A stretch of 51,633 nt of DNA from Clytia hemisphaerica (taxonomy: Eukaryota), in the NCBI RefSeq assembly GCF_902728285.1, contig NW_027104315.1, forward strand, positions 354,032-405,664, written 5' to 3'. The notes beneath the pieces are model-generated. The model was not told the DNA's origin, ran no database searches, and saw nothing but the letters and a program-made list of their open reading frames with translations. This document shows positions 12,455 through 41,813 of this stretch, piece by piece. The position numbers and the translations under genes were made by a program. Within the stretch, counting starts at the first letter, position 1. Each line of letters starts with the position of its first letter.

Positions 12455-12492
12455 GTAAGTTTTTTTCTGATATTCTTTACATGTTAATTTCA

Positions 12493-13655: not shown

Positions 13656-13704
13656 GTAAGTTGGTTCTTTTTTACAATATCCCAAATACAGTAAGTTAGC
13701 CTAA

Positions 13705-23830: not shown

Positions 23831-23918
23831 GAAAAAAAAACTCCAACTAAATAAAACTTTTCACCGATAAGGTATGCTATGCACGACCTAGAAATGAAAA
23901 ACTTTTTGCTGTTAATAG

Positions 23919-24112
23919 GTTAACACCTGGATCAAGTTTATTTTATCATCGTGGTGGACCACAAAAATGTTTGGCTGAAAGATTCAAAACATACTGTTTC
24001 TGCAGTGAAAACGCTCAGAACAACCAAGTTATCAATTGTACTACTAATGCTATTGTTGATCGTCCAAAATATATTGTCGGAAATAACCAATATCAGGAGC
24101 TCAATTTTCCAG
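23919..24112 (+). CDS. Exon, VWD C-terminal Cys-rich region (KLTPGSSLFYHRGGPQKCLAERFKTYCFCSENAQNNQVINCTTNAIVDRPKYIVGNNQYQELNFP)
   Basis: Acceptor gttaatag|GT, donor CCAG|gtaagt; phase 2 in, 1 out, consistent with neighbours. Confidence 0.65.
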
Positions 24113-24295
24113 GTAAGTTTTCCCACGTTACGAAGAATAATTCTTTTTTTCGGGAATGATTCCACTAAAAATTATGTATTTAAAGAATTGCGAAGTGATC
24201 TAGTCTCCATGACTCCAACCCTCAAGGGGACGCAATTTTTTTCGAGTTAAGGAAATTTCAGCTATGGAGTAAGGTTTGTAAGGAATTTTTAACTT

Positions 24296-24575
24296 AAGGT
24301 CCAACAAAACGTAAGTGACCGTAGCATGAAGGTAGAGCATCCAGCTACGGTAGGCAAGGTTGTGGGTTCGATCCCCAGCCGGGTCATACCAAAGATTCCC
24401 GAAATGGTACTTGATGCCTCTCTGCTTGATGCTTAGCAACTAAAGAGACAGATCAAGGGTAAGTGGAGAAATCCAGGGAAAGGAGTGGCGCCCTCGCCTA
24501 CCTTCGGGTAGACAGCTATACGAAAAGGGAGCCTTTGGGTCACCCTCGACTGCGGTTGTAAACTTACTTTCAACA
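24296..24575 (+). mobile_element. tRNA-derived SINE copy (most complete; head ends '…GGTTCGATCCCCAGCCGGGTCATACCA')
   Basis: As above. Confidence 0.7.
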
Positions 24576-25328
24576 AAACTTGGTCGAGTTAAGGAGAAGA
24601 CATTCGAAATACAAATGACTCTACTGTACTAGATTTCAAAATAATCCTTGAAATAATCATTGGCATATCGCAACGAGACAAAAACTTCTCCCGCAGAAGG
24701 CTTCTGTTCTCCTGTGCAGTGACTTTCAAAACAAAGCACACTTTTTTATATGATCATACCAAATAACTTGCTCCATTTAGTTTTAAACCCGGTTTTAGGG
24801 ATTTGTCGGCATGATTCTAATTTTTATCAGCGATCCAAAAAATATCTGCAATCTGATTAGTTAAAAAGAATACAACATATCTTTTTTTTTACATGTACAA
24901 AATATAAATTGACAAAAAGATGTTCTTACATTTTAGCGGTAGAAGCAATCTAACGTCACTTTGCTACAAAAATGCCCTGCGCTTTTTTCCGACACAAAAA
25001 GTGCATTTTTTCGGTCACCGATAAACCAGTTATCAGACATTTTTTGCTTGTACAATATGGAAATATATTTCTCATATTGTACTCGTAGCTGTCCGATAAC
25101 TATTTCATATCGAAACTTCATGTTCTTTCCAACGGTAACTACAAAGGATCAAAAAGACTTCCGAAACAGAGACTGAGTTAGGAAGTGACCTGACAGAGCC
25201 TTTAGAACTCTAATTATTTAAAACAATCAAACATTTCTATACATTTTATTTTTCAGGAGCTGAACACTGTGGTAAAAGGAGGCGAAGACGTCGGGATGTT
25301 GAAACACAGAAAACCTTAATCTTGCCAG

Positions 25329-25540
25329 ATGATGGCGAAGATGCGGTATATTTTTACGATCCTATCCAGCCTAATAAAACGCTACCTTCTTTCCCAACAC
25401 CTAATGGTATCACTGAAGTGCAGGCTATCTTTAATTGTGACAAAGCATTGCGAGAATCAGAGAGTGGAAAAGTATGTTTGGAACTCGTTCCCGACCTTGA
25501 TATTGATGGCATCATAGAGAGCTGTGTTGAAGATACAAAG
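25329..25540 (+). CDS. Exon (DDGEDAVYFYDPIQPNKTLPSFPTPNGITEVQAIFNCDKALRESESGKVCLELVPDLDIDGIIESCVEDTK)
   Basis: Acceptor cttgccag|AT; donor AAG|gttagg lies ~14 bp before a MITE; phase-consistent. The upstream 'tttttcag GAGCTG…' candidate was rejected because of an in-frame stop. Confidence 0.6.
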
Positions 25541-25554
25541 GTTAGGAGATTCTT

Positions 25555-25652
25555 CCCAGCTGGCGCACAGCGTTGTTTCAATGTTAATCTAACGTTCACA
25601 ACGTCCATTTAACGTTAGATTAACGTTTAAACAACGTTGTGTGCCAGCTGGG
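25555..25652. mobile_element. AACGTT-rich palindromic MITE copy, ~14 bp after exon-15 donor
   Basis: Sequence identity to the other copies. Confidence 0.85.
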
Positions 25653-27170
25653 TTTCTACTGAATGATAATGTACAGATATCACATATACAAATGCAGTTG
25701 ACACTTTCTAATTCGTTTTTTAGGGTAACTTTTCATCGAATAAGTACTGTGAAAAGTTAAGGTCGAAATCATATATCGACGCTGTGCCGACCAATCCAGA
25801 TTATATTCAGCGCGCAATCAACGCAGAGAAAAGTAACCATAACTCTTATGGACATTAAATGGACGGCTTTAAGACCTATGGACGTCCTGGAAACATACAT
25901 TAGACGACCAAAAGACGTTTGTGCCCATCGGGATCGATGATTTCTTTGATATTCATCATCTTCTTGTTCGCCATCATCCTTTGACGTTTTTGTAAGGTCA
26001 TTGGTTGAAAAATGAAGCAATTCCACTGGTAGAAATTGACGTAACGGACGAAAAAAGCAGAACTTCCATCAATTCTTTTTTTGTTCGCGCGAAACTTTTT
26101 TATGACGTAATCTTTTGTTCAGGCAAAAAAAGGTTAAGAAAAAAACTGTCGCCCATTTCGCATGAACGTGGAGTCCGGCCTTAAGAAGTACCCTGAGTAT
26201 TAGAGGGTTAATTTTTCAAAAAATATAATAACCTCTGAAGACAAATAATAGAAACTTCATCGCGCATGTGTCAATCTAATCACTGTACAAAAAATCAAAG
26301 ATGAAGAGCAAATATTACCATATTAATGTCTAGCAGACTGTATCAGTATGCAGTTTACTATTTACGAATTCCCCAGAAACCTCCAAGTGTAATTGAAATG
26401 AGTTTATTTCGAAAGAAATCTTCTACACGATTCCCAATTGTATAACAGTCATTACTAAACTATTAGTTATGGAAATGTCACTTTAATTGAATCGAAATAA
26501 TAGACATACTTTATGTTATGATTCTCTATCACTGACTCTTTTTACAAAGCATTGATGACTTTTTGTAAATTGTGTTTTCAACGACGGGAATAAAAATATC
26601 AACTTTGAACCTCATCCAAGATCTTGGATGGTCGTCATGGTTACTTTTGTCTTCGTTGATTGCGCGCTGAATAGAATCTCGATTCGTCGGCACATCGTCA
26701 ATATATGATTTTGACCTGTGCTATTCACGGTACTTAAGAAGTTGTTTCGACGTTAGTTATGAACATTAGATGAACGTTGCAGAAACATTGTGTACCAGCT
26801 AGACAAAAGACATGAACTTATGTCTTTTGTTACCCAGCTAGCGCATGACAGGGAAAAAAACGTTGCTTCAACGTTCATCTAATGTTAGATGGACGTTATG
26901 AATGTTTGATAGACGTTGATATTAATTAACAATCTTAATTACACGCTTTTTGTATAAGAACAAACCAAAAACATAAGGTTTCGATGGCCAAAATCTTAAG
27001 AGCAAGTGAAGAACATTTTAAGGCTTTGTGGATTCTAAAACACCTGATTTCATAGGAAACTGGACCAAAATACTCACAAAATGGGGGAAATTAAGAACGC
27101 TGTTAAGAAAATATTTAGGCTAAAAACTCAAAAAATTAAGAACATCCAAATGCTTCTATAATCTTTATAG

Positions 27171-27414
27171 ATCTTGGATGATATAGAAGTTGCAACATCA
27201 TCAGCTGTTGGTGTCATGAAAGATGCATGTGAGGAAGTCACCCTTCGAAATATCACATTATGGAAAACAGATGATACTACTGGTCAACTTCAACCACCAA
27301 AAGCTGTTGCAGAAATCTTATGTCCAAACGAATGTAGTGGTAATGGTTATTGTGCTAATGCAACATGTGTTTGTGATGAAGGATATTTGTCTGCTGATTG
27401 TTCCATCCACGAAG
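27171..27414 (+). CDS. Exon, linker plus EGF-like domain (…[31 protein letters not shown])
   Basis: EGF pattern C.3C..G.C.4C.C..GY.4C; acceptor ctttatag|ATC, donor GAAG|gtgaaa. Confidence 0.7.
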
Positions 27415-27442
27415 GTGAAAAGCACAGATTTCTGTTTATCTA

Positions 27443-27855
27443 ATTTTCACAGGTCCATATAAAATTAGATAAACGTTAAAAAACGTCGTGTGCCAGCAGG
27501 GAAGAGGGACTTCTGACCATAGATTTATAAAGTCAAAAAGGCTAGATGTTCTACTTTAAGCTCTTCCAAACAAACAAAAAAGAAAGTGAATATCGCAAAA
27601 AATATTGCTGCTATTGTTTTCAAAAGACCCGCGAAGCTTCTTATTGGTCAAGCACTGAAATTCTATTGTGATGCCACGCGACCTCGGCACACTTTTCAGC
27701 CAAAACATGACATCTACCTAGAACTTTGGACTTGAATCTATGGTCAGAAGTCCCTCTTCCCTGCTGGCACACGACGTTTTTTCAACGTTTATCTAACTTT
27801 ATATTGATCTGTGAACATTAGATAAACGTTGAAACAACATTGCGCGCCAGTTGGG
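27443..27855. mobile_element. Composite: half MITE (27443-27500), a second TIR element with 27-bp TIRs GGGAAGAGGGACTTCTGACCATAGATT (27500-27762), then a full AACGTT MITE (27758-27855)
   Basis: Nested inverted repeats seen directly in the sequence. Confidence 0.7.
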
Positions 27856-28331
27856 ATTCATATCCCCTCTATCTCAGTTTATTAGTAGGGTAAATAAATT
27901 GAATTCATTGGTCTAAATATATTTTTATAACAAATCTTGCCCATACTATTTCATTAAGAGTTTACCAGAGTCTAGGTATAGGAATTCATGCCCTGGTCTC
28001 TTTGAAATTTGCATGAATTGCATTTGTCCTCCTAAAACATTACGTTCGACCATACAATTTTCATAGGGTATAGACTTTTTTTCAAATTAAAGAAATGATG
28101 TGAATAATAGTAGAAGTTCAAATTAGAGAGAGTTGAGTATTCATGATATCGATGACGTAATGTTTTCTACGGAAAGACCCCGGTTTTAGCCAGTATAGTG
28201 GCAAATTTAAACTACACTTGAAAGATGTGAATTCACAAAAAGTGGAACTCACTAAGAAACGAGATGAGAAATCCCAGTTTTTGGTGAGGTGCTCACTAGA
28301 ATATTATGAACTTTATAATGTATTTTTATAG

Positions 28332-28468
28332 ATGATCCACCAGTGCTGGTAAAAGTGGCTTTCAACGGATTGTGTGACATTCGTCAAAAGGACTGCGTTC
28401 GAACACGTGTCATTGGTAGAAACTTCATCAATTCTGAAAGTTTAGCTTGTCAAACAAAGGCTCTCAAG
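28332..28468 (+). CDS. Exon (DDPPVLVKVAFNGLCDIRQKDCVRTRVIGRNFINSESLACQTKALK)
   Basis: Acceptor ttttatag|AT, donor AAG|gtatgt; phase 1 in, 0 out. Confidence 0.6.
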
Positions 28469-30114
28469 GTATGTTTTAAACGATACTATCGTCTACACAT
28501 TATCACTAAAAAAAGGAATAATTCAGGAGGCGGGATAAATTTGAAGACGGAGTTCAGTTCGGGAGAGTGAACAGTTGCGGAGGTGTTTACAGTTGTTTCA
28601 AAACTCTACCGCCATTATTTTTCCCGTAAACCGCCCTGACGCCCTGACTGCGCATTTATACTTTCCTGTGCTTACTGACCCTTTAAACGGACGATAGCAT
28701 CGTCTAGGTGTGTTTCAATTCAACTAAAAGTCTATTGCTTGAAAAAGTAGGAGTCTCTATAACTACTAGCCGTCCCGGCGTCGTCCGAGACGACTTCTTA
28801 CTCCTTTTAATACGCTCGCTTCGCTCGCTTTTCTATTTTTCAGAAACTTGTAGGGATTTGTATACAAATGTACTTATTTTGCGAGAAGAAATGTTCTTAA
28901 ATTTAGGCCTTTTTCGTAAAAATTGATGTTTAAAATTTTTAAGGGGACACTAAAATTAATGCACATTAAAAAATATGGTGAAAGTATTTTTAGTTGAATT
29001 TTGATTTTTCTTCTCCTTATTAAATTGTTTAAATTTGTCATAATTTCTTTTGTTGAAAACCTTCAAACAATAATGTTCTTGACTCGCTAAAAATAATGCT
29101 CATGCAAATATTGGTGAAAATTGAGTTAAAAATTTCTCGCGAGAAATCGGTCATACTTTAAACGTGCTTTTTTTTGGGTTTTTGGAAGAGGAAAGACTAT
29201 TATTTTCCTCACGCAAGGATGAAGATAAAAAACAAATAGAAATTCAAATTCAGTATTAGAGGTACTTGGCAACACCGATCACTCCAAAGACCACAGTGCT
29301 TTACGGTGGAATATAAAGAGTGCCTTTTTTCAATACCTCTTAACAGAGTCAACAATTATTTAACAATTAAACTCAATGCGTAAGTAAAAGCGTTTTCATT
29401 TTGCTATCTCAATAGAACAAAAAATAGCAAACATTGATTAAAAAAATTTCATAATTGAATTGGGAATAAGTCATCAACTTTTCTCATATTGTCAAGTCCA
29501 TTAAATTGAAATGTTTTTATCAGAGTATCAAATAGACGGGAAATGTCATCGGAGCTTTATTAATCTCAAGGGTAATCATAAATATGATGTCTTTTTGAAA
29601 ACTCAAATTTTATCTTCGACGTATTCCCATGCGAATCAAAATTATTTCATAACCGACATAAACTTTTTTTTTAAAAACTATAAATTATGCTGATAGTGCT
29701 ATTGCACAGTCAGTTGTGTTTCTCCATCAAGGAGAAATGTGCTCTCTTGAATGGAAGTGCACTTGGCGAATAGAATTGAATATACAATCAAAAAGGCGCG
29801 AAAAAAATTGCCGTGTATTTAAAAATCGCTAGCGAAAAAGCCTCATGCGAGAATGGGAGAGTTCCGATTTAAGCGTATTATAATATAGATAATAACACAC
29901 ACCAGGAACAAAGATTTGTCCGAGTTTAAAGGAAATTTCATTTCAGTTCAGTTACCAGAAAACTTGTTCGAGTTAAAAAAACATTCGAGTTATAGAGATT
30001 CGAGTTTGTATTTCACATGGTATTGCTTCGGACCTAAATGACATTAACAGTAGATTAATCAATATAAGAGATACAACCCTCAAACTAAACACTGTTGTTA
30101 AAAACAGAAGCTTT

Positions 30115-30355
30115 TTGTGGGTCTTTCTCAGGAGACCCCAGCCAGCTACGATGACAGAGGTCGTGGGTTCAATCGCTTATCAATTCATATCAAAGTTTCA
30201 AAAATGTTCCTTGATAGTTCTCAATTTAATAAGAGAAATATTAAGGATAAGTGAGGAAATCCAGAAAAAAAATGACGCACTCCCCCTGCCTTTAGGTGGA
30301 TAGCTGGAAAGAGGAGCCTTTGGGCCACCTCCGGCTGCGTCCGCAAGACTTTCTT
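30115..30355 (+). mobile_element. SINE copy (divergent head, conserved core and tail)
   Basis: Core and tail align with 24296-24575. Confidence 0.6.
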
Positions 30356-30790
30356 ACTACTTGGTTATCTTATCACACCCCCTTGTCACAGACAGGATTT
30401 CTTCATCCAGTTGGTATAAGAATAACGAAATGAAACTCGATGGGGATTGATTTTCTCATATTGTTTTAGCTGGGGATGTCAATTCTTTTGTTTTCAAGTC
30501 AGAAAATTCAATGAGAATGGGGAAAATATCATAATATTTTGCAGTGAGGATTGGTTTATTTGATTATTTTCTGTGGGGACGAAAGTTGGAGTATTATTTT
30601 CCATCGGGAACGATATTTTGGCCAATTTTTCCAGTGGGAAGGGGTCCCAGTGGGTTTATGAGAAGGAGGTGCCTTATCTTGTTATGATGATTCTTCTTGG
30701 TTGTTATAGTTCACTACTGACCATTCTATCGATGAAGAATTCAACGGAGAAGCAACAATTCAAAGCAGTGAATTATTAAGTTTCGCCGAG

Positions 30791-30982
30791 TTGAGTTGCG
30801 ATCTACCTGATGTTCCAGTCGATATTGTTTTTTCGTCAACGCAAAAAGGAATTCCAGTTGGGGGTTTTGATATCCGATTGTCAAACAATGGGGAAAATTT
30901 CTCGAATGAGAGTTCACAATTTGTGGTGTATGATTCCAAATGTTTACAATGTAATGCCACTACTAAAGATTGTCAGTGGAAG
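30791..30982 (+). CDS. Exon, IPT/TIG-like segment (LSCDLPDVPVDIVFSSTQKGIPVGGFDIRLSNNGENFSNESSQFVVYDSKCLQCNATTKDCQWK)
   Basis: Open frame and donor AAG|gtatga; the acceptor (cgccgag|TTG) is weak and chosen for phase; exons may be missing between 28468 and here. Confidence 0.45.
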
Positions 30983-31490
30983 GTATGATACACTTTTTTT
31001 CAGGCTCAGTATTGTTCTTAAATTATTTGGTGATTTTGAGCCTCATTGTTCTTATAAAATTGTTTTCATATAAAAAAGTGTATGTTTTTTTATAAGAACG
31101 AAGTATATAAGAACTATATAGTCGATGTAATGTGTTTGTTGAACAACCGTAGAGCAAATTCAATAAAGTTATATACATCTGATGATTGCATAAGTAGCAT
31201 GAAACTTTTAGTAATGTATTTTACATGGTAATTTTTGAAATATAACTTTATAGTCGATGTAGTAATGAAAAATGAGTCGGTATTTCGTTCTCACAAAATC
31301 GATTCCAACGCATTCAATATTTGTCAAAAACACCTTGGGAGCCTACTAGAATGGTTCTAAAAGTCTTAAAAATCTTCCTTTGATTGTTATAGAAACTCAT
31401 GTACAGAAGTGACTAAGTCTGAATATCAGTTGGAAAATTCAACAGATCTTCAAAATTTGTGACCCCGCACGCTTCTGCCTTCAATATCAT

Positions 31491-31587
31491 CCCAGCTGAC
31501 CCGCAACGTTGTTTCAACATTAATCTAATGTTCACAACGTCCATATAGCATTAGATGAACGTTGAAACAACGTCGTGTGCCAGCTGG
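31491..31587. mobile_element. AACGTT-rich palindromic MITE copy, ~50 bp upstream of exon-19 acceptor
   Basis: Sequence identity. Confidence 0.85.
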
Positions 31588-31639
31588 GTATATGGTGTAA
31601 AATTAGAAATGAGTTAACTTCATCATCATCGAATTTTAG

Positions 31640-31745
31640 GAAGACTCCTGCCGAGTGAACAATTATTGTTTTGGCAAAGGAGATGCACATCCATTGGATT
31701 GGTGCAAAGTCTGTAGTGGAGAAAATGCTTTTGAACCAAGATATG
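31640..31745 (+). CDS. Exon, PSI-like Cys-rich segment (EDSCRVNNYCFGKGDAHPLDWCKVCSGENAFEPRY)
   Basis: Acceptor gaattttag|GAAG, donor TATG|gtaaga; C..NNC…WC..C spacing resembles plexin/semaphorin PSI. Confidence 0.55.
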
Positions 31746-32159
31746 GTAAGAGAATTTATATTTGGTTGTGTATCATTTAAAATGCATGGGGACAATGTTT
31801 AGTTTTCTAATGTACCTGACATACGAGAAAATAAGAGACGAGCACCCCGATCTAGAATATGTCTTTCCGTAGAAACCTTCCCAAGACTCGCATCAGTGCA
31901 GTTCGGGGGCTCACTACAGGGCTCAAAACACTATAAACATTTGTAGAGAGCAGAGAGAGAGAAGAAGCCGGGCCTGACAGAGTCTCTTTAGAGCGCTCTA
32001 GAAACTGAATTCACGCTCAGCGCTATATCTATCCACAATTAAGTGTTTCGTCCTTCCTTTTTTCCATTTTTACTATTTGGTTGAGTCGCGAGAGGGTTAG
32101 AGGCCCATTTGAACAACTATAGACGCTTTCAGCACCTTGAACTGGATACCCAATACCCC

Positions 32160-32290
32160 TTACATGGCATGGGTTGACCCAGGCGGAGGTTCATTCACTT
32201 ACCAGGTGAACCGCTGCGAGTGGGAATCGAACCTCAGTCGCCTGTGTAGCAACCAAGGTCAATGACCACTATACCACAGCACCTTCCTAA
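32160..32290 (-). pseudogene. tRNA-like segment (minus strand '…GGTATAGTGGTCATTGACCTTGG…GAGGTTCGATTCCCACTCGCAGC…'), probably a SINE head or tRNA pseudogene
   Basis: GGTTCGATTCC T-loop-like box and D-loop-like AGTGGT; no clean cloverleaf could be folded by eye. Confidence 0.3.
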
Positions 32291-32576
32291 TCAGATTCTT
32301 AAGAATCTCTAATCAACCAAGATTAGAAGCTTACAATGCATGAAAAACGTATACAGTATTTCATTCACATCCAATGATTGGCTGTAAGGCGTGAAGCAGA
32401 CTATAATGTTTTAGATTTTTTTTTTTTAATATAATTTTTAATTTGATAATCTTATACAGTACATTTTCTCACTCGTCAGGCATGCATGCATGTGTGAAGT
32501 TCGGTATAGGGCGTTACAGTCCTGTCAACTGCCTTTGCCCATTGAGGATCCAACTATTATAAAAAAAAATGATTAA

Positions 32577-33757
32577 GGGAGTGGTCAGAAAGTATCTACT
32601 AGGGGGGTGGAGGATTCTAGGGGGGGGTTCCAAAAATTTTTCGAGGGTTTAGGGGGGGGGGTTCCAAATCTTTTGGGCAACTCAAGAGAAAATGTAGGAA
32701 GTCTAATTTCATAGTTTTACGCTTCAAGATTTCAAAAATTTATTTTATTTGATATATGTACATGTCATACTAACATTATTTGGGCATCATCGCCTTGCCC
32801 TTTTGGTTTGTAGCATTGAGCTAAATGAGGGAAGCAGATTAGTGGCTTTCACAGCTCATCAGAGTGGTTTGAAAAAGTACTTTTCAGAAAGAAATTTGTC
32901 AAAACAAAGTGTCTTTTAGCTAAAATGGTAGTGAAAAACATCGAAATTTTCTCCCGTCGGCGCAAACCATGGTTGTGCCTCCTTAGTCTCTACTAATATC
33001 TTATAAATTATATACACAGAGCTTTGACAGACCCTGGAAAACCTGAAAATATAGGTTTTTCAAAAATAGAAATTTCAAACTCAGAGAATTTTATTTATCA
33101 GACTCCTTTTAACAACAGAATAGCTTATATTTTAGGGTCTCGAGTACCTGATCTTCAAAATTTTCTCCCTTCGGGGCCAACCATGGTGGCCCCTCAGGAT
33201 ATTTTGAGTAATTGAGTAATGCTTCTGTAATGTAGGGAGATTATGTATCAGGGAAAATAAGCCGTAATTTTCTCCCAAAACTTTGGGAAACTCAGAGAAA
33301 ATAACTCGTTGATTCTTATTTTAACCCTGGACTATTCCTATAGGAGATCTACCATTTTGATTGACGTTTACACCACGGGTTTTTTTCTTTTGTTTACTTC
33401 AGAGAAATTCCGTCGTAACCATGGAAATCGACGGAAAAAATCCCGTGGTGTAAACGTCAATCAAAATGGTAGATCTCCTAAAGGACTATACTCAACTTTA
33501 CAGGGCTAAACTATCTCCCTTACCTAATTTTGACTTAAAAACTGTCATACAAACAAATAATACTCTTTGTACCGCATCTGTATGAATTCTTTTTTTGCGT
33601 AAAAATTTTTCTAGTGGGGGGGGTGCGAAAAAATATTGGGCCTTATGAGGGGGGGTTCGAAATTTTTTTCCAGGCTAGGGGAGGGGGTGTGAAAGTATTT
33701 TGGGATTTTTCAAAATATCCTCCACTCCCCCCTAGTAGATACTTTCTGACCACTCCC
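32577..33757. mobile_element. ~1.18-kb non-autonomous DNA transposon with perfect 31-bp TIRs GGGAGTGGTCAGAAAGTATCTACTAGGGGGG, TAA/TTAA flanks; contains a ~140-bp hairpin MITE at ~33345-33485 and G-rich subrepeats
   Basis: TIRs and internal palindrome seen directly; solo TIR-like fragment at ~23103-23140. Confidence 0.8.
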
Positions 33758-34242
33758 TAATGTCGAAATTTCAAATAATCATCAAAAACAGCGAGCCAAC
33801 TTTTCTTTTGACACTTACCTTCTTTACACGTAAAAATACCAGAAAATGCAAATGTGTTCATCAAAACTCGTTACAGAATTTAAAAATATGGTAAAAAAAG
33901 CTATTCCCATGTGGAATAATATTTTTCGAATAGCTGAAAAAAAATATAGAAATCTAAAAAAGAAGTTTTGATATTATGTGTGTGCTATGTGAGAAAACTT
34001 TTGAAAAAATAAATCACCATTCCTCGACTACATGGTTGCTCAAAGAATTTGGGTCTGCATCGAGTTGGCTTGTGTTGGAAATGTTCATGACTTCCAAATA
34101 AGATGGAGAAACTGTTGGCAAAATACAAATAAGAAAAAAAACAAAATGAAATTTAAGAAGATTAAGAATCACTCTCGCTTGGAAATGAAGTCAACAGTTA
34201 CAATTACCAGCATAATACCTTTCTTTCTCTTGCCTATTTCAG

Positions 34243-34449
34243 ACAACTTGGCACCTGTGTTTCGACCAACTGAACCTATCAAAGTTTTTAAAGACCAAGA
34301 AATGAGCTTCGTTATCCCCGTATTTGATCCTGAACAGAAGAGGATGAAATATGAGTTGATAGAACCACCATCACCACCACTGGGTATGGAGATCTCCAAT
34401 GGTGGAGTACTGACATGGACACCCAAGGAAGAAAACAAAACGTTCACAG
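34243..34449 (+). CDS. Exon, dystroglycan-type cadherin-like (CADG/He_PIG-like) domain (DNLAPVFRPTEPIKVFKDQEMSFVIPVFDPEQKRMKYELIEPPSPPLGMEISNGGVLTWTPKEENKTFTG)
   Basis: Motifs 'F.IP..FDPE…Y.L…P.G+.I.NG.L.W.P'; acceptor ctatttcag|AC, donor CAG|gtaacc; the phase-1 G from exon 19 completes a GAC codon exactly. Confidence 0.65.
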
Positions 34450-34775
34450 GTAACCTTCAGTGTGCCAAATAGGTCCTTTTTACGCAGGACCTTATGACGG
34501 TTTTCCGTCTCTGTTTGGTACAAAAAGAGACTTTATCATCTCCAAATTCAACAAAAATTTTCATTGCCAAGTTCATTAACATCTTGAGACAAAAAACTTT
34601 GACCATTGAATTAAATGTCTTAAAGCCAACAGTAACATTATTTTACTTCCCAAAACCAGCGAGTTTATTTCAAGCAATATTCTTTAACATTAAATGATAA
34701 TATACTTGACTCATCTGAAAAGTTATATGGACCTCATTTACAAATCCTAACTAAAATTTCCTCTTTTTTTCCCAG

Positions 34776-34957
34776 TATGGATCAAAGTTACTGACATTTG
34801 TGGCAACAGTTCGTATTCTACATATGATTTTGAGGTTGTTAATTGTCCTTGTCAAGCTTTCAATGGTGCAGAATGCCAAAGAGGTGATAATGGAACTATT
34901 AGCTGTGTTTGCCTGCTGGATGTACCGGAAAAAAGTCGAAAAAAGCTTGCACTATAG
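34776..34957 (+). CDS. Exon: end of cadherin-like domain plus Cys-rich EGF-like segment carrying RGD (VWIKVTDICGNSSYSTYDFEVVNCPCQAFNGAECQRGDNGTISCVCLLD…); stop at 34955-57 if unspliced, or donor at 34922 (GAT|gtaccg)
   Basis: Acceptor tttttttcccag|TA; phase-consistent with exon 20; the 3' boundary is unresolved. Confidence 0.5.
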
Positions 34958-36061
34958 TTTGCTCTTAATAACTCGAAAGTAAAAGTTATGTTTTGCTTAG
35001 TTGAATGGACCTATCAGAGTTTTCTTGATTTTTTCTAAAACAGCGATGCATTGTGGGATTGTTTCAGGAGTATTACAATAAATCTCTTAGAATTCCTCGA
35101 GGAATTCATTATACCCCGGAAACAATCCCACAATGCATTACCGTTAAAGAAAATCAAAATACCCGAACTGATTTCTTTTTTCACTGAAGATTAAGCTTTT
35201 GAGTATGAAAAACTGAAACGTTTTTTAATCAAACTAGTGGAACTGTTAAATTTTTATATTCACGGCACCTGTCTGCAAGGGTAACCCTGCTTACAAAGAC
35301 TTACAGTCAACTCTCTCTAATTCGAACCTCTATTATTCGAATTTTTCTGTAATTCGAACTAAAATTGGTCTCTAAAGCTGTAAAGTGGTTTAAATTACTC
35401 TCTATTATTAGAATCTTTCTCTAATTCGATCAAAGTTTTTGATCCCTTGAAGATCGATTTAGAGAGAATCAACTGTACTTATAAAGTCAAAAATTCTTCA
35501 ACTATTAGCTTTGTGCGAAAAACTTCTCTTTACACACCACCGTGCCACAGATCCGGTGGACCCCCAGCCTCACATGTAAATAATACCCTAGGATTTAAAC
35601 CCCACTGGATAATTAAAGTATGATTTATCCCCATTCGAAATTGGGCGGCAAAAACTACACTCCAAAACCAAAACCACCCCCGTTTTTCTTTTTGAGCTAG
35701 AAACAATGATTTTCTGTCCCCTTTCGGACTTTCATCCCCACAGAGAGAAAAAAATCCTTTAGCAAAAATTGCCTTGACTTTGATTTTTTTTTATTTACTA
35801 AGGTCACCCACTCAACTAAGCTACTTTGAAATAATTAATAAAGAATAAAATATGATCTACAAATTTAAAATACCCGTAAAGAAACGTAATGGACAAGTAA
35901 GTAGCTTGACAAAATGATATGTAATCTTGATATCTCAATCTCTTTACTTTTCCAGTTGTTCCATTGGCGAAGAGTGTAAACAAAAAAGTAAGGAAAAACT
36001 GTCTTTTTGATTTTCTAAAAGTCCATTTTGGCTTAAAGTTTAGTTAAAATAATTTGGTAGT

Positions 36062-36156
36062 CCAGTTGGCAACGACGTTGTTTCAACGTCTATCTAACGT
36101 TATATAGACGTTATGAACATTAGATAAACGTTGAAACAACGTTGTGTGTCAGCTGG
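36062..36156. mobile_element. AACGTT-rich palindromic MITE copy
   Basis: Sequence identity. Confidence 0.8.
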
Positions 36157-36418
36157 TAGGCCACTCTTAGACCATGTTCAGACGTTACGGTTTCGTTTCG
36201 CTCCGGTTTGGTATTTGTTACGGATAGAAAGTGTTCATACTCATTTCGGAACATTTTGGAACAACAAAACGGAGCAGTTCTGTTCCGATGAAAATAGTAG
36301 AGCAAAACTGTTTCTAACTGTTTTGCTTTGTAACGTCTTCTTTTTTGACGTTTTCAATTTTGACGTTCAAGGAACGAATCGTCCATACAGGATTCGAAGC
36401 TAATCAATTCCTATTTAA

Positions 36419-37125
36419 GGGCTCTGACCATAGTCCAAAAATAGATTTTGGTATTTGAACATAAAAGTTATATTTCAGGTTCCTTAACACTTTTAACAAA
36501 GAATTGCCTTTATAAATTGCTTTTTAATCGAATCCCTTAAGAGTAATTAAGAATTTAATTGCAAAAATGACGTTATGAACTTTAAAAAGATGTTAATAAT
36601 ATGTTGCATCACCCTCTTTTACAAAAAGTGCTTAGTTTTAATGGGTAAATAACTTTTTTGTTTCAAAATTTCTTTACACTGTCCGCAAAGAATTGAACTA
36701 TTTCAAATTTTGCGGAAAATTTTTCTAAAAGAGTGTCAAAAGTTATGACTGTTTTTTTAAGCAAAATCCAGATGAAAAATTATGAAAAACCACTAATTTG
36801 AAGATTTCGAGACAAAGAGCATTACCAAAAATTTTCCGCAAAAATTTTTATTGTTCGGTAAAAGATACACCATCTACTGCGAAATTTCTTTCAAAATGTT
36901 TTTTCTTCGCCGAAACTAAGCTCTTCAAAGTTGAAATACTCTTCCTCGTAAAAGTCTTCATTTTCTTCTTCATCAAATTTTCTCAATGCAATTTTTAAAT
37001 TTTTAGATTCAGGAATAGTTTGTCTAACAGAAAATGTATAACATGCCATAGTTTTGTTAGTTACGTCAGTCAGAAAAGACATTTTAAACACGGCAATTAT
37101 GAAAAATTCACTATGGTCAGAGCCC
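36419..37125. mobile_element. 707-bp TTAA-flanked element with 15-bp TIRs GGGCTCTGACCATAG
   Basis: TTAA TSD at 36415-18 and 37126-29; partial 5' copy at 4217-~4350, only ~22 bp after the exon-1 donor. Confidence 0.75.
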
Positions 37126-37205
37126 TTAAGTTGTGCAGATCACCTGTTTCTTATGTTGGTTGGCTTAAATGTAATTTTGACCACCAGAATTCGCCCAAAA
37201 ATACC

Positions 37206-37292
37206 CCCAGCTGACACACAACGTTGTTTCAACGTTTTTCTAACATTCACAACGTCCATATAACGTTAAATGAACGTTGTGTGCCAGCTGGG
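37206..37292. mobile_element. AACGTT-rich palindromic MITE copy
   Basis: Sequence identity. Confidence 0.8.
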
Positions 37293-38772
37293 TAGTGTTA
37301 AATTCAAACTGTCATCCGAAATGTTATCTGGCACCCGATGTAGAAATTTTCTTCCGACACGCTAAAGCTCTGAAGGTCGGGAAAATTTTCAACATCTGGA
37401 AGAAATACATTACGGAATTTCGCCTGACCGCGTAATTTTTTAGAAAAATGGGCCCGAGTGCAATTTGGATAGGGAAGGTGTCATGGCCGACAAAATTTCG
37501 GTCAGAAAAAACTTCCAAAGGTTTCACGAAATAAATTCAAATACAAAACTTTTGGAGAAGGAATCATGCAAAATATTATCATTCTTTTCACAAGGAGGGC
37601 GGAGAATACTCAAATAAGTATTTTCCTTCTTAAACTGATCACAGACAAAAAAAATGAATAACATTGTACACAAAAAAGCCTGAAAGAAGAGAAAAGTCAT
37701 AATCAGCATCTATAATAACACTAAAAGAAAAACTAAAGCTATAGAAAATGAATACTAACCCTCAATGAAGACTTTTGTGAAGTTTAATAAAGATTTTATC
37801 CAAAAAACTTCAGTTCTGGAAAACTGAAGTCGGTTTGTCGGTTTGTCGGTTGTCGGCCGGTGGACAACAGTTATATTTGGAGGACGGTCTAAGATAGATA
37901 ACAACATGAAAGTTACTGATAAAAGCCTAAGCCCATAGGAACATACCTGCTTTAGTTTCTTTGGTCTTTGAATGGTATAAAATTTGAGAAAGTGCAGAAA
38001 AAATCAGCCATCAAAACAAACAAAAACAAAAGTTTGATTATCAACTTTTCTGTGGTAGAAACACATTTTTTGGGTTGGTGCACATACAGAAATTACACTG
38101 GATACTAAAACTAATATTCAGGGAGTGATAAGTACAGTTAAACTACAAAAAAATCCATCAAAAGAAACCAAAAACAACCATAACAGCACACATTTTTTGA
38201 AAATTACATCAGCCATGTTGTTTGTAATTTTTGCCGACATACTCATGACGTGGTAACTAACGACAGTGATTTGACGGTCTTTTTGAGGCGCCAGATCTCA
38301 AAAAAACAATTTTTGAGCGTTCAGCACGGCCCCGAAAATGAGGGCTAAACTTATGTCGGCACATCAATGGATGACTACTATTTCTCTCCGATGGTATATT
38401 GGACCGCTCCTTTAGAGCTTTAGCGTGGGCGGCCGCCAATACGCCATCGGAATATCAGATAATCCGAAATGTGGTGAACATTTTGAAGATTCCTCTCTAG
38501 TCTTCGGCTAGATTATCACATTTGATCTTACCCCCTAAGGACCTAAGGTGTTTAAGCGAATATCGGACAGAGATAGAGGTGCATGAGTTTTTTTATTTAT
38601 CAATGAAAAAATTTCAAAATTTCAAAAAGAGAATCAGTGGATTGGAATTTTCCTTGAAAGGAAAAATGTGAAAAAAGAATTCACACATCCCCTACGGTGT
38701 TTAGGTTCTGCAAATACTGGATGGATAGAAATGCATAAGTTTTAACATTTTCAATATTTCAACTTTCAATAG

Positions 38773-39162
38773 CATCTCCAATGAAACTCAACTGCTATCA
38801 AAACAAAATGGAAATTGGTTTAGAATTCGATCACCTATCACGTCACTCCTTACCTTATATCGTCAAATTTCATGGTGATAATAACTGCCCAACATTAAAT
38901 GCATCTTCAGCATCTTCAATATACGATGGACGTCTATGGATGAATGCAAATTACAGTGAATGTGGTATCAAAGCTTTTGAGAGCGGAAACAAACTAGTGT
39001 TCAAACAAATCGTTGAAGTTGTGTACGGAAAACAAATGAAATCTTTAGATGTTTATCGACATTTTATTGATACTTATAACGCTTCTTGTTCGATTGATAG
39101 AAATGTTACACATAAATTAAACATCGATGTTAAAGAACAGGAGACTCTCGACGATGAAACAG
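38773..39162 (+). CDS. Exon, ZP-N domain (…LNCYQNKMEIGLEFDHL…GDNNCPTLNASSASSIYDGRLWMNANYSECGIKAFESGNKLVFKQIVEVVYGKQMKSLDVYRHFIDTYNASCSID…)
   Basis: Matches uromodulin ZP-N 'ECGANDMKVSLGKCQL…DSRCSGF…W…GPCGT…Y.N.L…I.R…I.F.CSY'; acceptor ttcaatag|CA, donor ACAG|gtaggc; enters in phase 1, so an upstream exon is required. Confidence 0.8.
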
Positions 39163-39174
39163 GTAGGCACTTTA

Positions 39175-39266
39175 CCTGTAGCACACAACGTTGTTTTAAC
39201 GTCCATCTAATGTTTACAACGTCCATATAACGTTAGATGAATACAACAACGTCGGGCGCCATCCGG
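39175..39266. mobile_element. AACGTT-rich MITE copy (degenerate TIRs), 13 bp after the ZP-N exon donor
   Basis: Sequence identity; flanked by a duplicated 'GAAACAGGTAGG(C/T)ACTTTAC' segment. Confidence 0.75.
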
Positions 39267-40034
39267 GTTTCTATACTTGTGATGCATATTTATTTTTAAT
39301 GTATGTTTTTATGAGGCCCTCCAAGCGGTTTTCTTGATGTCGTACTAGAGACTTTCTTCTGGCGAGGAAACAGGTAGGTACTTTACAGGGGGGTTTCATG
39401 GTTGACGGAGGAGTGGAATCGGCCCTTTTTCGAACGGAGTGGCGGAATTTGACGAAAATTTTGACGGAATTTCGGAAATTGAATCTGCTGACGGAGATGG
39501 AAAATTAGACAATTTTAGTGTGGAAAAACGGAATTTAGCAAATGTTTTTGCAGTTTTTCGGAATTATGGCTAAAGATATTTGAATCACGCAGAATTTTTT
39601 ACAAAGAAAGCTTGAACTTCAAAGGAATCTTTGATGGTGGAGTTCTTATTTTCACCCTGAAAATTGTAAAAAATCACCAAAAGTCGTCCCTTTCCAGATA
39701 CACATCTTGAAAATTAGTAAAATTTGGGACCCTACCAGATATCTTCAGAGCCTAAAAAAGGGATCCTGACTAGCAACATATCCCCCCGTACCCAATTATG
39801 CTTACCTTTTCTGAAGGTGAATGGTAAAATACGATGGCTTTTTTACGGAAAAACTTAATGAAGAACTAACTCGGCAAAAAGTACTCTAGGGGTTCACGAC
39901 TTGGCGAAAATAAAGTTGATTCAATAATACAGTGGGACTTCCAATTTGCGGACACCACGGGGAAAAGGGTGGTTAGTGTCTGCTATAGTGTCCACTAATA
40001 AGTACATATTTCAAACTTTTTTTTTATTCAACAG

Positions 40035-40233
40035 AGGAGAACGCCGATTTCAAATTCAAATTTAGTGCTTTCAAAGACGATAAAACAGCGATCAGTGGTT
40101 TGGTCTTTCTTGGAGATTTAATCCATTTCGAATTGGAGTTACTTTCCAACTCTAAAGTTGTGAAAACGTCTCCTCAAGATTGTTTTGCTACGCGTTTGGA
40201 TGGAACAGGACGCTACGATCTTATTAAAGATAG
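40035..40233 (+). CDS. Exon, ZP-C domain start (EENADFKFKFSAFKDDKTAISGLVFLGDLIHFELELLSNSKVVKTSPQDCFATRLDGTGRYDLIKD)
   Basis: Acceptor attcaacag|AG, donor ATAG|gtaaac; resembles uromodulin 'F.V.MALFQ…L..[22 protein letters not shown]'. Confidence 0.8.
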
Positions 40234-40814
40234 GTAAACATATATTTATTGTATAGTCAAAAACGTCGCAAAAACCTTTCTTTTGGGATGAGATTTAAGT
40301 AATAAAATTTCAAATTAATTTCTCAAAAAATTGTGTGAAGAAAATCTCCATGAAGAAAAACAACAACAATAGGTAGAAAAGGTAGCTAAGAAATGCTATG
40401 TTCAGTTTCAAAACCTTCGCGAGTGTTTTGCCTTAATTTCTTTTTTAGCGGAAACCTTTACCAACTTTAATAACCTTAAAATCATTTAGACGATGCTATA
40501 GTCTGTTAAAGGGATAGTTTATCGGCGGTAAAATGTATATGTGTGGAGTTTTCAACCGTAATGTCAGTATACGGAAAAATTGGCGATAGAGTTTTGAAAA
40601 AATGTCAAGCTCTACCGGCTGTAAACTATTTTCGCCGCAAAAAAATATCTGTTTGCTTTGGCTTTGGTTTTATTTCTTAGTTAGTGATTTGAAATCATTC
40701 AATACACCTTTTCTAACGTAGCCGCCAATTGCCACGTGAGCATTGTTTTGTCCGTTTTACCACCCTAAAACCGTTCCAGTCTTTTTTTCGCACCTATAAG
40801 ACAATAGAAAAAAA

Positions 40815-40911
40815 CCAGCTGGCACACAACGTTGTTTAAACGTTAATCTAACGTTCACAACGTCCATTTAACGTTAGATTAACGTTAAAACAACGTTGTA
40901 TGCCAGCTGGG
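40815..40911. mobile_element. AACGTT-rich palindromic MITE copy, ~125 bp upstream of the ZP-C exon acceptor
   Basis: Sequence identity. Confidence 0.85.
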
Positions 40912-41035
40912 AAGTGTAAAAAAAAGGATTAGATCGAGTTTAGGGTCGTAAATCAAATAATAAAGTGGCAAGTGTCTGACCGCGCGACTACGGTCGAAGA
41001 GGTGTATTGGCCAAATATTCTTATCATTTTTTTAG

Positions 41036-41328
41036 ATGTGTAGGTGATGATGAAACACTCGCGATCACATCGTCCAATCAACAAACACACATGTTCTCGT
41101 GGGAAATGGAAGCTTTCAGATATTTTGGAAATTCTGACGGTATTGTAATCACCTGTCGAGTTTTGGTTTGTCGAAATAATCCTTTTGATCAACTGACAGA
41201 TGAATGTAAGAGATGTGGACAAACTACCGTCAGACGAAAACGAAGAAATGATGAAGATGAAGAGGAGAAAGATGTTTTGAGCGAAACTTCGCTGAAGAGT
41301 GATCCCATTTTCCTTGTTGAAAGACCAG
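41036..41328 (+). CDS. Exon, ZP-C end plus consensus furin cleavage site and external hydrophobic patch (RCVGDDETLAITSSNQQTHMFSWEMEAFRYFGNSDGIVITCRVLVCRNNPFDQLTDECKRCGQTTVRRKRRNDEDEEEKDVLSETSLKSDPIFLVERP)
   Basis: 'IKD|RC' spans the splice exactly as in uromodulin 'IQDRCP'; RRKRR followed by a hydrophobic stretch; acceptor ttttttag|AT, donor CAG|gtatag (an alternative 6 bp later keeps the same phase). Confidence 0.85.
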
Positions 41329-41649
41329 GTATAGGTATGTCGCTCTCTCTCTCATTATTTCTCTTCTTACATGTTGTAAATTGTCGATTTGAGTGATACT
41401 TCATTTCCTGTATTAAGTTTCCACTGACTTTTCTGAGATTTTTCCGCTAAATAATGTTTTCAAGGCAGTTGTTGCACTCATAATGATTTATGAAAAGGCC
41501 CAATGTCATTATTAAATCTGTCATAATTTAAATACGTACTATGTACTTATCGTGCCTTTTACTGATGCATATTTCGTGACTGTTCCCCAGCTCCCGGACT
41601 ATAACTTTAGTCAACTCTGATGTTATTGTTTTATTTATTCTACACAAAG

Positions 41650-41813
41650 GCCTTGCCAAAGTATCTGGCGATGAAGCAGGTCTCGATCACACTGAAAAGA
41701 TGGCAATCATTGTCGTTTGTGGTGTTGTTGCTTTGGTTCTTTGTGTTGCCATCGTCAAAAAGTTTTTCTTCAAACCTCAAAGTGGAATGCCAGAAAAACC
41801 TGTTGTTGGATAA
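41650..41813 (+). CDS. Terminal exon: transmembrane helix plus short cytoplasmic tail (GLAKVSGDEAGLDHTEKMAIIVVCGVVALVLCVAIVKKFFFKPQSGMPEKPVVG*)
   Basis: Acceptor cacaaag|GC completes a GGC codon from the previous exon; 19-aa hydrophobic segment then KK stop-transfer; TAA at 41811-13. The ORF-track frame over this region (MLLFYLF…) is the wrong frame. Confidence 0.8.

Follow-up and report, generated by a model that had tools for sequence, protein, structure and literature searches.

The interval between positions 34776 and 38773 of the window (the whole 51,633-nt stretch of Clytia hemisphaerica DNA analysed here) raises the question of whether a run of adhesion-domain exons and the ZP module downstream of it belong to one gene or to two. 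A sequence-only reading had left two resolutions: small exons that were missing, or a second gene with a hidden leader exon. The data assembled here make it very probable that the interval is an internal junction of one gene and not a gene boundary, with exon 21 joined to a mini-exon, the mini-exon joined to the ZP-N exon, and the phase broken by CC in place of CCC. In the mRNA, these three exons would follow one another directly (Table 1). The adhesion-domain exons and the ZP module are thus predicted to form a single 26-exon C. hemisphaerica gene, linked via the 32-nt mini-exon.

The exon order can be read from transcript contigs of environmental metatranscriptomes, which represent very close relatives (nucleotide identity 97% for L003 and about 95% for L001); they derive from organisms at a dS of about 0.1 and not from the sequenced strain, whose own transcription of the locus they do not show. 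Contig L003 (JGI Ga0314704_10019706, 2331 nt) is collinear with ten window exons, from 28356 to beyond the stop. It is a single ORF containing VWIKVTDICGNSSYSTYDFEVVNCPCQAFNGAECQRSDDGTISCVCPAGCTGKNCSIGEECKQKMVSPMKLNCYQNKMEIGL and ending in PVVG and a stop codon, and proceeds from the adhesion-domain body through the EGF, ZP-N/ZP-C and furin site to the TM. It spans exons 17-26, and L001 and L002 (second sample) span exons 21-26, with identical joins between exon 21, the mini-exon and the ZP exon. In these relatives, the adhesion-domain body and the ZP module therefore form a single transcription unit in one spliced ORF. A continuous ORF from 28356 through the ZP module to the stop speaks against a second gene with a hidden leader. 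Likewise, no missing small exons are needed: L003 runs 34934/35956-35987/38773, and one added base puts this chain in frame.

Table 1. Features of the predicted gene and of the exon 21-ZP junction (window coordinates).
Feature	Position	Strand	Evidence and remarks
Whole gene, 26 exons (predicted)	4004..41813	+	25/25 introns GT-AG; phases all consistent
L003 alignment blocks	28356-28468, 30708-30983, 31638-31745, 34242-34449, 34769-34934, 35957-35987, 38775-39162, 40030-40233, 41033-41329, 41648-42206	+	95-99% identity
Exon 20, first part of He_PIG/dystroglycan-cadherin-like Ig-type domain	34243..34449	+	L003 492-699, 97%; He_PIG match weak, E=0.053
Exon 21, end of Ig-like domain and most of EGF (CPCQAFNGAECQRGDNGTISCVC / PAGCTGKN)	34776..34934	+	L003 693-859 and L001 1-45 stop exactly at 34934, then mini-exon
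1-nt deletion site	34912..34913	+	Window TGCCTGC vs TGCCCTGC in both transcripts (L001, L003)
TAG in exon-21 frame	34955..34957	+	Met only if unspliced; inside intron 21, irrelevant to mRNA (transcripts splice at 34934)
Exon 22, 32-nt mini-exon	35956..35987	+	In L001 (46-77) and L003 (860-891); phase 2 in, phase 1 out
Exon 23, ZP-N (SPMKLNC...)	38773..39162	+	Phase 1 entry; L001, L003, P0001 and P0003 align
Premature TGA	38782..38784	+	Codon 1259 of raw spliced frame, 24 codons past deletion; overlaps ATG 38781
Exon 24, interdomain linker and ZP-C start	40035..40233	+	L003 and L001 alignments
Exon 25, ZP-C, furin-type site RRKRR, external hydrophobic patch PIFLVE	41036..41334	+	Tandem donors 41329, 41335
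Exon 26, TM helix MAIIVVCGVVALVLCVAIV, short tail, TAA stop	41650..41813	+	3' UTR reaches at least 42684

Support for the model differs along its length: L003 covers exons 17-26; tblastn matches to P0006 (a paralogue), P0007 and P0008 underpin exons 4-16 apart from exon 8 (14396-14482), whose placement comes from our own script and a by-eye match to P0006; and exons 1-3 and the start codon are model only. The N-terminus of the long model (MPFYIIVLGGGG) is short for a signal peptide, and no better leader was found upstream. The exon-chaining script served for splice-site bookkeeping only. Its predicted filler exons (30132-30250, 30470-30497, 32123-32205, 33403-33447, 33674-33734 and 35509-35575) are low-scoring and, judged by L003, not in the mRNA. 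Rfam returned only far-sub-threshold miRNA-like matches, on palindromic repeats, and no tRNAs were found; six intronic ORFs gave no Pfam matches.

Exon 21 is directly preceded by tttttttcccag, and the donor used by the transcripts is GT 34935-36 (AAAAAA/GTCGAA). It had been noted earlier, correctly, that the exon-21 frame meets a TAG unless splicing occurs before it, and that a GT is present at 34922-23, where it lies in phase 0. The use of that GT as the donor is not borne out, as transcripts splice at 34935 instead; this site and GT 34884, which is in frame to the ZP exon, had both been overlooked. By general consensus GTCGAA is a weak donor, which counts against the one-gene chain. Within the 26-exon gene, a GTC donor is not aberrant, because 5 of the 25 donors carry a pyrimidine at +3.

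The mini-exon (ttccag/TTGTTCCATTGGCGAAGAGTGTAAACAAAAAA/gtaagg), proposed previously as a candidate, proves to be real, since it lies between exon 21 and the ZP exon in L001 and L003. It translates as CSIGEECKQK: its first base completes an Asn codon, after which come the sixth EGF cysteine and the linker ((N)CSIGEECKQK); every difference from the relatives is synonymous in the coding frame. In the corrected frame, exon 21 and the mini-exon jointly encode one complete EGF-like domain (C-P-C..C..C-V-C-PAGCTGKN-C), which the nine-residue linker SIGEECKQK connects to the ZP module.

The ZP exon opens at the acceptor caatag/CATCTCC and contains internal ATGs only, the first at 38781. As the sequence-only reading had recognised, it enters in phase 1, has no signal peptide or start of its own and needs a preceding exon, which L001 and L003 supply in the form of the mini-exon. 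AG 38771-72 is the only usable acceptor in the inspected upstream stretch, as no other AG occurs there; by eye, the frame is open back to 38739. In L005, a genomic contig from a more distant relative (ttgttttcag/TGGCTCC), manual alignment places the acceptor 11 nt from the AAACTC codons, equal to the window. The boundary is not identical throughout: at the mini-exon/ZP join the relatives are longer by a codon (KQK-MV-SP versus KQK-T-SP in the window).

The mini-exon requires phase 2, and no exon-21 GT donor leaves this phase in the domain frame. This mismatch in the raw sequence had been reported before; its cause is one base missing relative to the expressed homologues. Exon 21 reads CC at a site that is CCC in close relatives, which is why the exon phases fail: this deletion moves the adhesion-domain frame into a dead frame. 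It is the sole exon-21 gap in both BLAST comparisons (L001 and L003); over 1.9 kb of coding sequence, every other length difference is a multiple of three (3 and 6 nt). Across all exons of the raw assembly the frame is interrupted, and a 1-C insertion gives 1605 codons: with one C added, the 26-exon model becomes an uninterrupted 4818-nt ORF encoding 1605 aa. On direct reading, the corrected frame also restores the EGF motif CxCPxGxxGxxC.

Substitutions bear on the age of this lesion. Over the 25 codons past the indel, there are four synonymous and no non-synonymous differences from L001; by our own estimate (15.7 of 75 sites synonymous), the chance of four out of four arising by accident is ~0.002. 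Relative to L003, dN/dS amounts to 0.11 for the part preceding the ZP module and to 0.13 for the module itself, values that indicate purifying selection on either side of 34912-13. The lesion is therefore either very young or an assembly error, and the phase puzzle is a matter of frameshift or sequence quality, not of new biology. Two further mechanisms, programmed frameshifting and reinitiation at 38781-84 (where start and stop overlap as ATGA), were dropped, as the ZP product would have no signal peptide and relatives have the extra base.

Existing annotations cover only part of this gene. The ZP half matches C. hemisphaerica XP_066930018.1 at 100% identity and EukProt TCONS_00059241 almost completely; both public models cover the ZP half alone, begin at Met codons inside the ZP-N exon and lack a signal peptide. 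Among the annotations reached, exons 1-21 have no annotated protein. When exons 11-16, 16-22 and 20-21 were searched as protein, no annotation gave a 100% match, the hits being a Clytia paralogue and a genomic fragment, P0159 (65% each); L003's own protein is likewise missing from the searched protein database, making absence there weak evidence. The absent annotation of exons 1-21 fits a gene broken by a frameshift and would also fit an untranscribed upstream part. About 1,250 upstream residues (lectin, D8C, VWDE-type Ig, VWD and EGF) appear to be unannotated. The practical gain is a corrected gene model: the public models reached hold only a 338-345-aa ZP fragment, from which users of the Clytia expression atlas or of CRISPR targeting would misread the gene. 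More generally, a stubborn phase conflict can signal a single-base lesion rather than missing exons.

Whether the missing C is an artefact or an allele is a separate issue. Probably the draft Illumina+454 assembly carries a consensus error here or shows an unrepresentative haplotype; that the inbred strain is fixed for a loss-of-function allele has an appreciable but lesser chance. In that second case, the exon structure would be the same, and a young frameshift allele would yield a nascent pseudogene or a 1258-aa secreted protein without ZP module or anchor, from an mRNA that is likely an NMD target. Shortening of a C run from three to two is not a typical Illumina error, which counts against an artefact. 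The composition of the assembly cuts both ways: it is mostly Illumina with error correction, favouring a real allele, but also includes 454 reads and haplotype merging (bioRxiv 10.1101/369959). The laboratory strain sequenced was self-crossed three times (bioRxiv 10.1101/369959), which favours fixing of deleterious alleles, and redundancy is plausible given at least one close paralogue, XP_066930002.1 (94% amino-acid identity), on the same 459.7-kb scaffold. TCONS_00059241 begins at ATG 38781, the first Met past the frame-shifted stop, exactly as a CC template predicts, and the search for an annotated protein covering the 21 upstream exons came up empty; however, the Cufflinks and RefSeq models derive from this very assembly and offer no independent check on it. 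Against a real allele stand the continuation of the purifying-selection signature across the site and the lack of any second lesion, all 26 exons being open and all 25 introns GT-AG. It is on the whole unlikely that the CC allele is genuine in the stronger sense that the inbred reference strain is a natural knock-out, in which the VWDE-like/lectin ectodomain is uncoupled from the ZP polymerisation-and-anchor module of a hydrozoan-specific VWDE-ZP fusion gene. If true, the strain would already serve as a genetic experiment on the contribution of the ZP module.

The remaining alternatives dispute the chain itself. A ZP-only product is modelled by RefSeq and EukProt alike, and the ZP family includes proteins of 376-400 aa that stand alone and bear a signal peptide of their own (P0010, P0017, P0018 and P0020); both points favour an adhesion-domain gene that ends in exon 21, followed by a signal-peptide-plus-ZP protein with its own promoter or leader exon within 34935-38772. 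This is nevertheless very improbable. A scan of both introns for signal-peptide-like leaders gave a single poor candidate (36575-36644, MNFKKMLIICCITLFYKKCLVLM), which has a phase-1 donor but sits between two MITE copies, is lysine-rich and has no transcript match; the public models start at an internal ZP-N Met without a signal peptide, unsuited to a secreted ZP protein; and the relatives' transcripts carry exon 21 and the mini-exon, conserved as coding sequence, directly upstream in the same ORF. Less probable still is a real CC allele rescued by a cryptic donor at 34884 (AAAGAG/GTGATA, phase 1) spliced to 38773. This site is nearer consensus than GTCGAA, and the join to the ZP exon is in frame without a stop, giving a 1577-aa protein; yet it is not seen in any transcript, and it would skip the second EGF half and the mini-exon, discarding codons under purifying selection and leaving half an EGF with unpaired cysteines. 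Least probable of all are missing small exons that would bring exon 21 back into phase with the mini-exon or ZP exon. On the raw sequence, the chaining script did restore the frame, but only via an invented 67-nt exon (35509-35575) that scores poorly (2.9) and is absent from transcripts, and in L001 and L003, 34934 is followed directly by 35956 and 35987 by 38773, bar the one extra codon at the ZP acceptor. Of the earlier interpretation, the preceding exon and the mini-exon survive, and both proposed resolutions, missing exons and two genes, fall away in favour of a single gene with one base missing.

With the C restored, the 1605-aa product of this gene is predicted to be a CTLD-D8C-VWDE-like-VWD-EGF-ZP mosaic. 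Its full order is CTLD, T-rich linker, D8C, Ig_VWDE, VWD, RRRRRR site, EGF, beta-rich/He_PIG-like region, EGF, ZP-N, ZP-C, RRKRR and TM. Three domains exceed their Pfam cut-offs in the expected order: D8C_UMOD (207-287; 41.1 bits, cut-off 27), Ig_VWDE (311-416; 94.6, cut-off 28.1) and VWD (538-693; 35.7, cut-off 22.9). The EGF after VWD (920-948) falls below them (EGF_Teneurin 21.1 bits versus 24.3; EGF_2 19.6 versus 22.1), and the junction EGF is a weak match (E=0.96); by eye, the cysteine pattern of each is canonical. ZP-N (PF23344) aligns over positions 1-99 of 101 at 19.8 bits, under the 24.7 cut-off, and on direct reading has its four cysteines in the expected order (LNC, NNC, SEC, ASC). 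ZP-C (PF00100) scores 48.4 bits versus a cut-off of 24.6 on P0001, which is 100% identical to exons 23-25. When the same residues sat in longer constructs, ZP-C was unlisted by Pfam, which was treated as a tool or filter effect.

The features that follow ZP-C bear on how the protein may act. These are: RRKRR at 1518-1522, where cleavage is predicted; PIFLVE at 1542-1547; and the hydrophobic helix at 1569-1587. Cleavage-triggered ZP polymerisation is established for uromodulin, and by analogy the Clytia protein likely acts in the same way. From its domain make-up and from uromodulin-type ZP proteins, the precursor would enter the secretory pathway and be cut at RRKRR by a furin-type convertase. 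This cut would remove the hydrophobic patch and TM anchor, allowing the ZP module to polymerise into filaments; these would form an apical extracellular matrix or adhesion layer that exposes the lectin/D8C/VWDE-like/VWD ectodomain.

Uromodulin is also the nearest solved structure by sequence, weakly (E=0.007). Uromodulin and GP2 (vertebrate EGF-D8C-ZP proteins) share with the Clytia protein a D8C (Pfam D8C_UMOD, 41 bits), an EGF directly upstream of ZP-N/ZP-C, a polybasic site with a hydrophobic patch after it, and C-terminal anchoring in the membrane (by GPI in these proteins, by a TM helix in Clytia). The Clytia protein is much larger, with extra C-type lectin, Ig_VWDE, VWD and further regions, and the similarity of its ZP module to that of uromodulin is marginal. 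The VWDE family shares its core of D8C, Ig_VWDE (94.6 bits), VWD and tenascin/teneurin-type EGF, above or near Pfam thresholds, and homology reaches a bird VWFD protein and the Clytia paralogue A0A7M5WQE5, which has an N-terminal TSP1 repeat in place of the C-type lectin. Vertebrate VWDE ends in EGF repeats and is not known to carry a ZP module or a TM. Alpha-tectorin (NIDO, four VWD, ZP; GPI-anchored) likewise places a large VWD-containing ectodomain on a C-terminal ZP polymerisation module. This likeness is one of architecture only: the Clytia protein has just one VWD, its N-terminal domains are others, and no TIL/C8 repeats were detected in it. Clytia ZpdA, a cell-surface glycoprotein reported to have no recognisable homologue in Hydra or Nematostella, is by its published description likewise a transmembrane ZP-domain protein (Lapebie et al. 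2014, PMC4169000).

Nearest in their ZP modules (27-50% identity) are members of a hydrozoan ZP family with variable N-termini (P0009-P0020, P0046). Common to these and the Clytia protein are the motifs SPQxCYATRLDGTGKY, FxWEMxAFRYFG, CxRCGQ and RKRR and a TM, and P0009 also has a cysteine-rich EGF-like end immediately before ZP-N. Their partners differ: signal peptide only, NIDO+EGF (P0016 is NIDO + EGF-like + ZP), TSP1+VWA, or LDLa+mucin+VWA. None of the hydrozoan ZP representatives examined (ten sequences read, Pfam on eight) combines VWDE-type domains with ZP, and long ZP relatives considered as VWDE-ZP candidates (P0083 and others) have SRCR/CUB or otherwise unrelated architectures. The present gene adds a VWDE-like partner to the ectodomains carried on cnidarian ZP modules, which is unsurprising given how freely this module recombines with other domains.

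Spliced transcripts from very close relatives of C. hemisphaerica, found in environmental metatranscriptomes, show that the adhesion-domain gene body and the ZP module on either side of 34776-38773 belong to one gene, not two. The protein P0005 is encoded by L001 (a JGI metatranscriptome contig, 2022 nt) and by L002 (Logan assembly of SRR9648560), both from a single environmental sample. Upstream of the ZP coding part, their first 88 nt consist of tggaactattagctgtgtttgCCCtgctggatgtacaggaaaaaa, Ctgttccattggcgaagaatgcaaacaaaaaa and tggtgtctccaatg, corresponding in turn to exon 21 (its 3' end), the mini-exon and the ZP exon. By BLAST, L001 occupies 34891-34934, 35957-35987, 38775-39162, 40030-40233, 41033-41327 and 41644-42684. 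Exons 20-22, back-translated and scanned against JGI contigs, recovered L003 (Ga0314704_10019706, 2331 nt), from a different sample. It matches ten collinear window segments between 28356 and 42206 at 95-99% identity. Starting at base 1 of L003, a single frame stays open until the stop codon of the ZP part, taking in, in order, the adhesion-domain exons, ...ISCVCPAGCTGKNCSIGEECKQKMVSPMKLNC..., ZP-N, ZP-C, RRKRR and the transmembrane (TM) helix. In the contigs every window intron is missing, removed exactly at its GT-AG boundaries, so their source is spliced mRNA.

The sequence-only reading had placed the elements of this junction correctly: the exon 21 opening at 34776, a TAG at 34955-57 in the exon-21 frame, a GT at 34922, the mini-exon at 35956-35987 (ttccag upstream, gtaagg downstream) and the ZP-N exon starting at 38773 in phase 1. 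By eye, the AG before 38773 is the only one in the upstream open-frame stretch. The mini-exon, then a candidate, is real, being present between exon 21 and the ZP exon in the relatives' transcripts; as had been noted, no exon-21 donor supplies its phase in the domain frame. The alternative of two genes was reasonable beforehand, since stand-alone ZP genes occur in the family, and is contradicted at this locus by the transcripts.

The phases conflict because one base is missing. L001 and L003 read TGCCCTGC where the window has TGCCTGC (CC at 34912-13), and this one C is the sole exon-21 gap against both transcripts. When the window exons are spliced together, translation in the domain frame gives ...GTISCVCLLDVPEKIVPLAKSVNKKHLQ and ends at TGA 38782-84. 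In our own reading, the ZP frame is open from right after TAG 34900-02 and continues LCLPAGCTGKNCSIGEECKQKTSPMKLNC...; a script check gives CTG at 34903-05. Elsewhere in the coding sequence, lengths differ in multiples of three only, by a codon at the ZP acceptor (KQK-MV-SP in relatives vs KQK-T-SP in the window) and by six bases in exon 25 (donors GT 41329 vs GT 41335).

At the ZP acceptor, the relatives' mRNAs carry five bases, TGGTG, before TCTCC (L001 78-82, L003 892-896), and the window exon two (CA). L005, a genomic fragment of a more distant relative (76% amino acid identity), reads ttgttttcag/TGGCTCC (~381-397). In our alignment, its acceptor-to-AAACTC spacing is 11 nt, equal to that of the window (38768-38774), so entry in phase 1 with no start codon is a conserved feature; in one of the lineages the acceptor has apparently shifted by 3 nt. 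Exon 25 ends in tandem 5' splice sites six bases apart (41329-41336, G/GTATAG/GTATGT). L003 uses the upstream donor (PGVAK); L001 and the RefSeq protein XP_066930018.1 use the downstream one (PGIGLAK / PNKGVAK).

The full model comprises 26 exons (4004-41813). Exons 1-3 are our own reading, exons 4-16 are based on tblastn to A0A7M5WQE5, a Clytia VWD-protein paralogue, and to two further VWD proteins, and exons 17-26 are based on L003. Exon 8 relies on an exon script and a by-eye match to the Clytia paralogue. Every intron is GT-AG and every phase is consistent. Insertion of one C yields 4818 nt, or 1605 codons, free of stops, making the deletion the only lesion in the model. The modelled N-terminus (MPFYIIVLGGGGD, 4004-4039) is short for a signal peptide. 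No better leader exon was found upstream of it, and the true first exon may be absent from the model.

Between the indel and the ZP exon (25 codons), the window and L001 differ at four positions, all synonymous in the corrected frame; we estimate the chance of this at ~0.002, with 15.7/75 sites synonymous. Compared with L003 (644 codons, 97.3% nucleotide identity, dS ~0.10), the ZP module has a dN/dS of 0.13 and the coding sequence upstream of it 0.11. The two halves have therefore been constrained as a single coding sequence up to very recent times. The draft genome combined Illumina and 454 libraries with SOAPdenovo2 and Haplomerger2, from a three-times-selfed strain with ~0.9% residual polymorphism, and its gene models came from Cufflinks/TransDecoder on the same assembly (bioRxiv 10.1101/369959).

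A fixed frameshift is a possible but somewhat doubtful explanation. The EukProt model TCONS_00059241 begins with the first Met that follows the shifted stop, as expected from a CC template. As far as can be told, the RefSeq models rest on the same sequence, XP_066930018.1 being identical to the window; Cufflinks, and apparently RefSeq, models built on that sequence are not independent witnesses. The gene shows no other damage, and such draft-assembly indels are commoner than a fixed loss-of-function allele in a given gene. For these reasons we favour a consensus or haplotype artefact as the probable origin of the missing C.

Queried with the translations of exons 20-21 and ZP-N, a protein search gave TCONS_00059241 (345 aa) as a 100% match. 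Its cluster also includes XP_066930018.1 (338 aa, "uncharacterized protein"), the environmental variant P0005, and XP_066930002.1, a paralogue located on the same 459.7-kb scaffold. By tblastn, XP_066930018.1 is identical to the window at 38808-39161, 40031-40234, ~41034-41339 and 41649-41810. Both it and TCONS_00059241 start at an internal Met of the ZP-N exon (MKLNC..., MEIGLEF...) and lack a signal peptide. For exons 11-22, protein searches of RefSeq, UniProt and EukProt found no high-identity annotated protein; the best match is A0A7M5WQE5 (65%), itself a 658-aa fragment. The 5' 1,250 codons (4004-34934) seem unannotated or called pseudogene, and the chief value of the finding is a corrected annotation. 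XP_066930002.1, outside the window (262 aa, 94% identical), likewise has an internal Met as its modelled start (MKSLDVYRHF); a second, similarly mis-annotated VWDE-ZP copy may lie near the locus.

With its mosaic architecture, the corrected protein is a new member of the ZP/VWDE families. The part encoded by exons 20-21 matches He_PIG (Ig-like) weakly, and the junction EGF comes next. In the C-terminal module, ZP-C scores above the Pfam threshold and ZP-N just below; RRKRR (1518-1522), a hydrophobic patch (PIFLVE) and the TM helix are also present. After the VWD region, RRRRRR (782-787; window 25257-25540; GAEHCGKRRRRRRDV), with the counterpart KRKRR in the homologue P0008, may be a second convertase site, which would split the ectodomain.

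Domains of the corrected protein (residues) and MITE copies (window positions)
Feature	Position	Basis
Lectin_C	28-134	Pfam, 56 bits, above cut-off
D8C_UMOD	207-287	Pfam, above cut-off
Ig_VWDE	311-416	Pfam, 94.6 bits
VWD	538-693	Pfam, above cut-off
Teneurin/tenascin-type EGF	919-948	Pfam, just below cut-off
MITE copies	10529-10604, 25566-25641, 27770-27844, 31502-31577	~90-nt palindromes
MITE copies, intron 22	36061-36156, 37204-37294 (also given as 36071-36146, 37217-37281)	~90-nt palindromes
MITE copies	39184-39240, 40825-40900	~90-nt palindromes

The nearest solved structure is of uromodulin type, for which the ZP polymerisation mechanism is established. By analogy, the protein is likely secreted as a type-I membrane precursor; a convertase would likely cut before the hydrophobic patch; and the ZP module would then likely polymerise into filaments displaying the lectin/VWDE-like ectodomain. 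With the ZP module as query, a full HMMER search covering 1.84 billion representatives identified 165 relatives. The closest form one family with shared ZP motifs and varied N-termini: a signal peptide only (376-400 aa), NIDO+EGF, TSP1+VWA, or LDLa+mucin+VWA. One fragment has an EGF-like end immediately ahead of ZP-N; none of the representatives examined combines VWDE-type domains with ZP. ZpdA is a ZP-domain surface glycoprotein described in Clytia embryos, and this gene may be ZpdA or its paralogue.

G+C is ~35% and uniform along the window. Intron 21 (34935-35955) contains a palindrome at 35031-35153 (43-nt arms, 37-nt loop) with only miRNA-family matches in Rfam (33.8 bits vs a gathering score of 100); all Rfam matches of the intronic hairpins fall far under gathering scores. 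In intron 22 (35988-38772), two palindromic MITE copies flank ~1.05 kb. Between them lies a leader-like ORF (36575-36644), the only one with a phase-1 donor, which is unconvincing. Six intronic ORFs, on either strand, gave no Pfam match, and no tRNAs were found. The MITE core CACAACGTTGTTTCAACGT has 16 half-sites in the window (0.04 expected), all in model introns, and several copies sit 20-60 nt from an exon end (after exons 5, 15 and 23; before exon 19). Near-identical dispersed repeats within introns pair 7677-7990 with 11112-11431 and 16752-16907 with 17142-17306, the two copies of a pair sharing their ORF text. One repeat family is also common to the 3' UTR (~41950-42240) and two introns (30394-30671, minus strand; 6861-7109, plus strand), at 77-79% identity to L001 1271-1564. 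Downstream, a plus-strand gene (42956-50530) opens with a clear signal peptide (MKYIVLLVFVLIGQSQA) and has, by eye, several putative fasciclin-like (FAS1) motifs (IFAPYDDAF, VFAPNNKAF, LFLPTNQAV); it starts ~270 nt beyond the aligned end of the ZP-gene 3' UTR.
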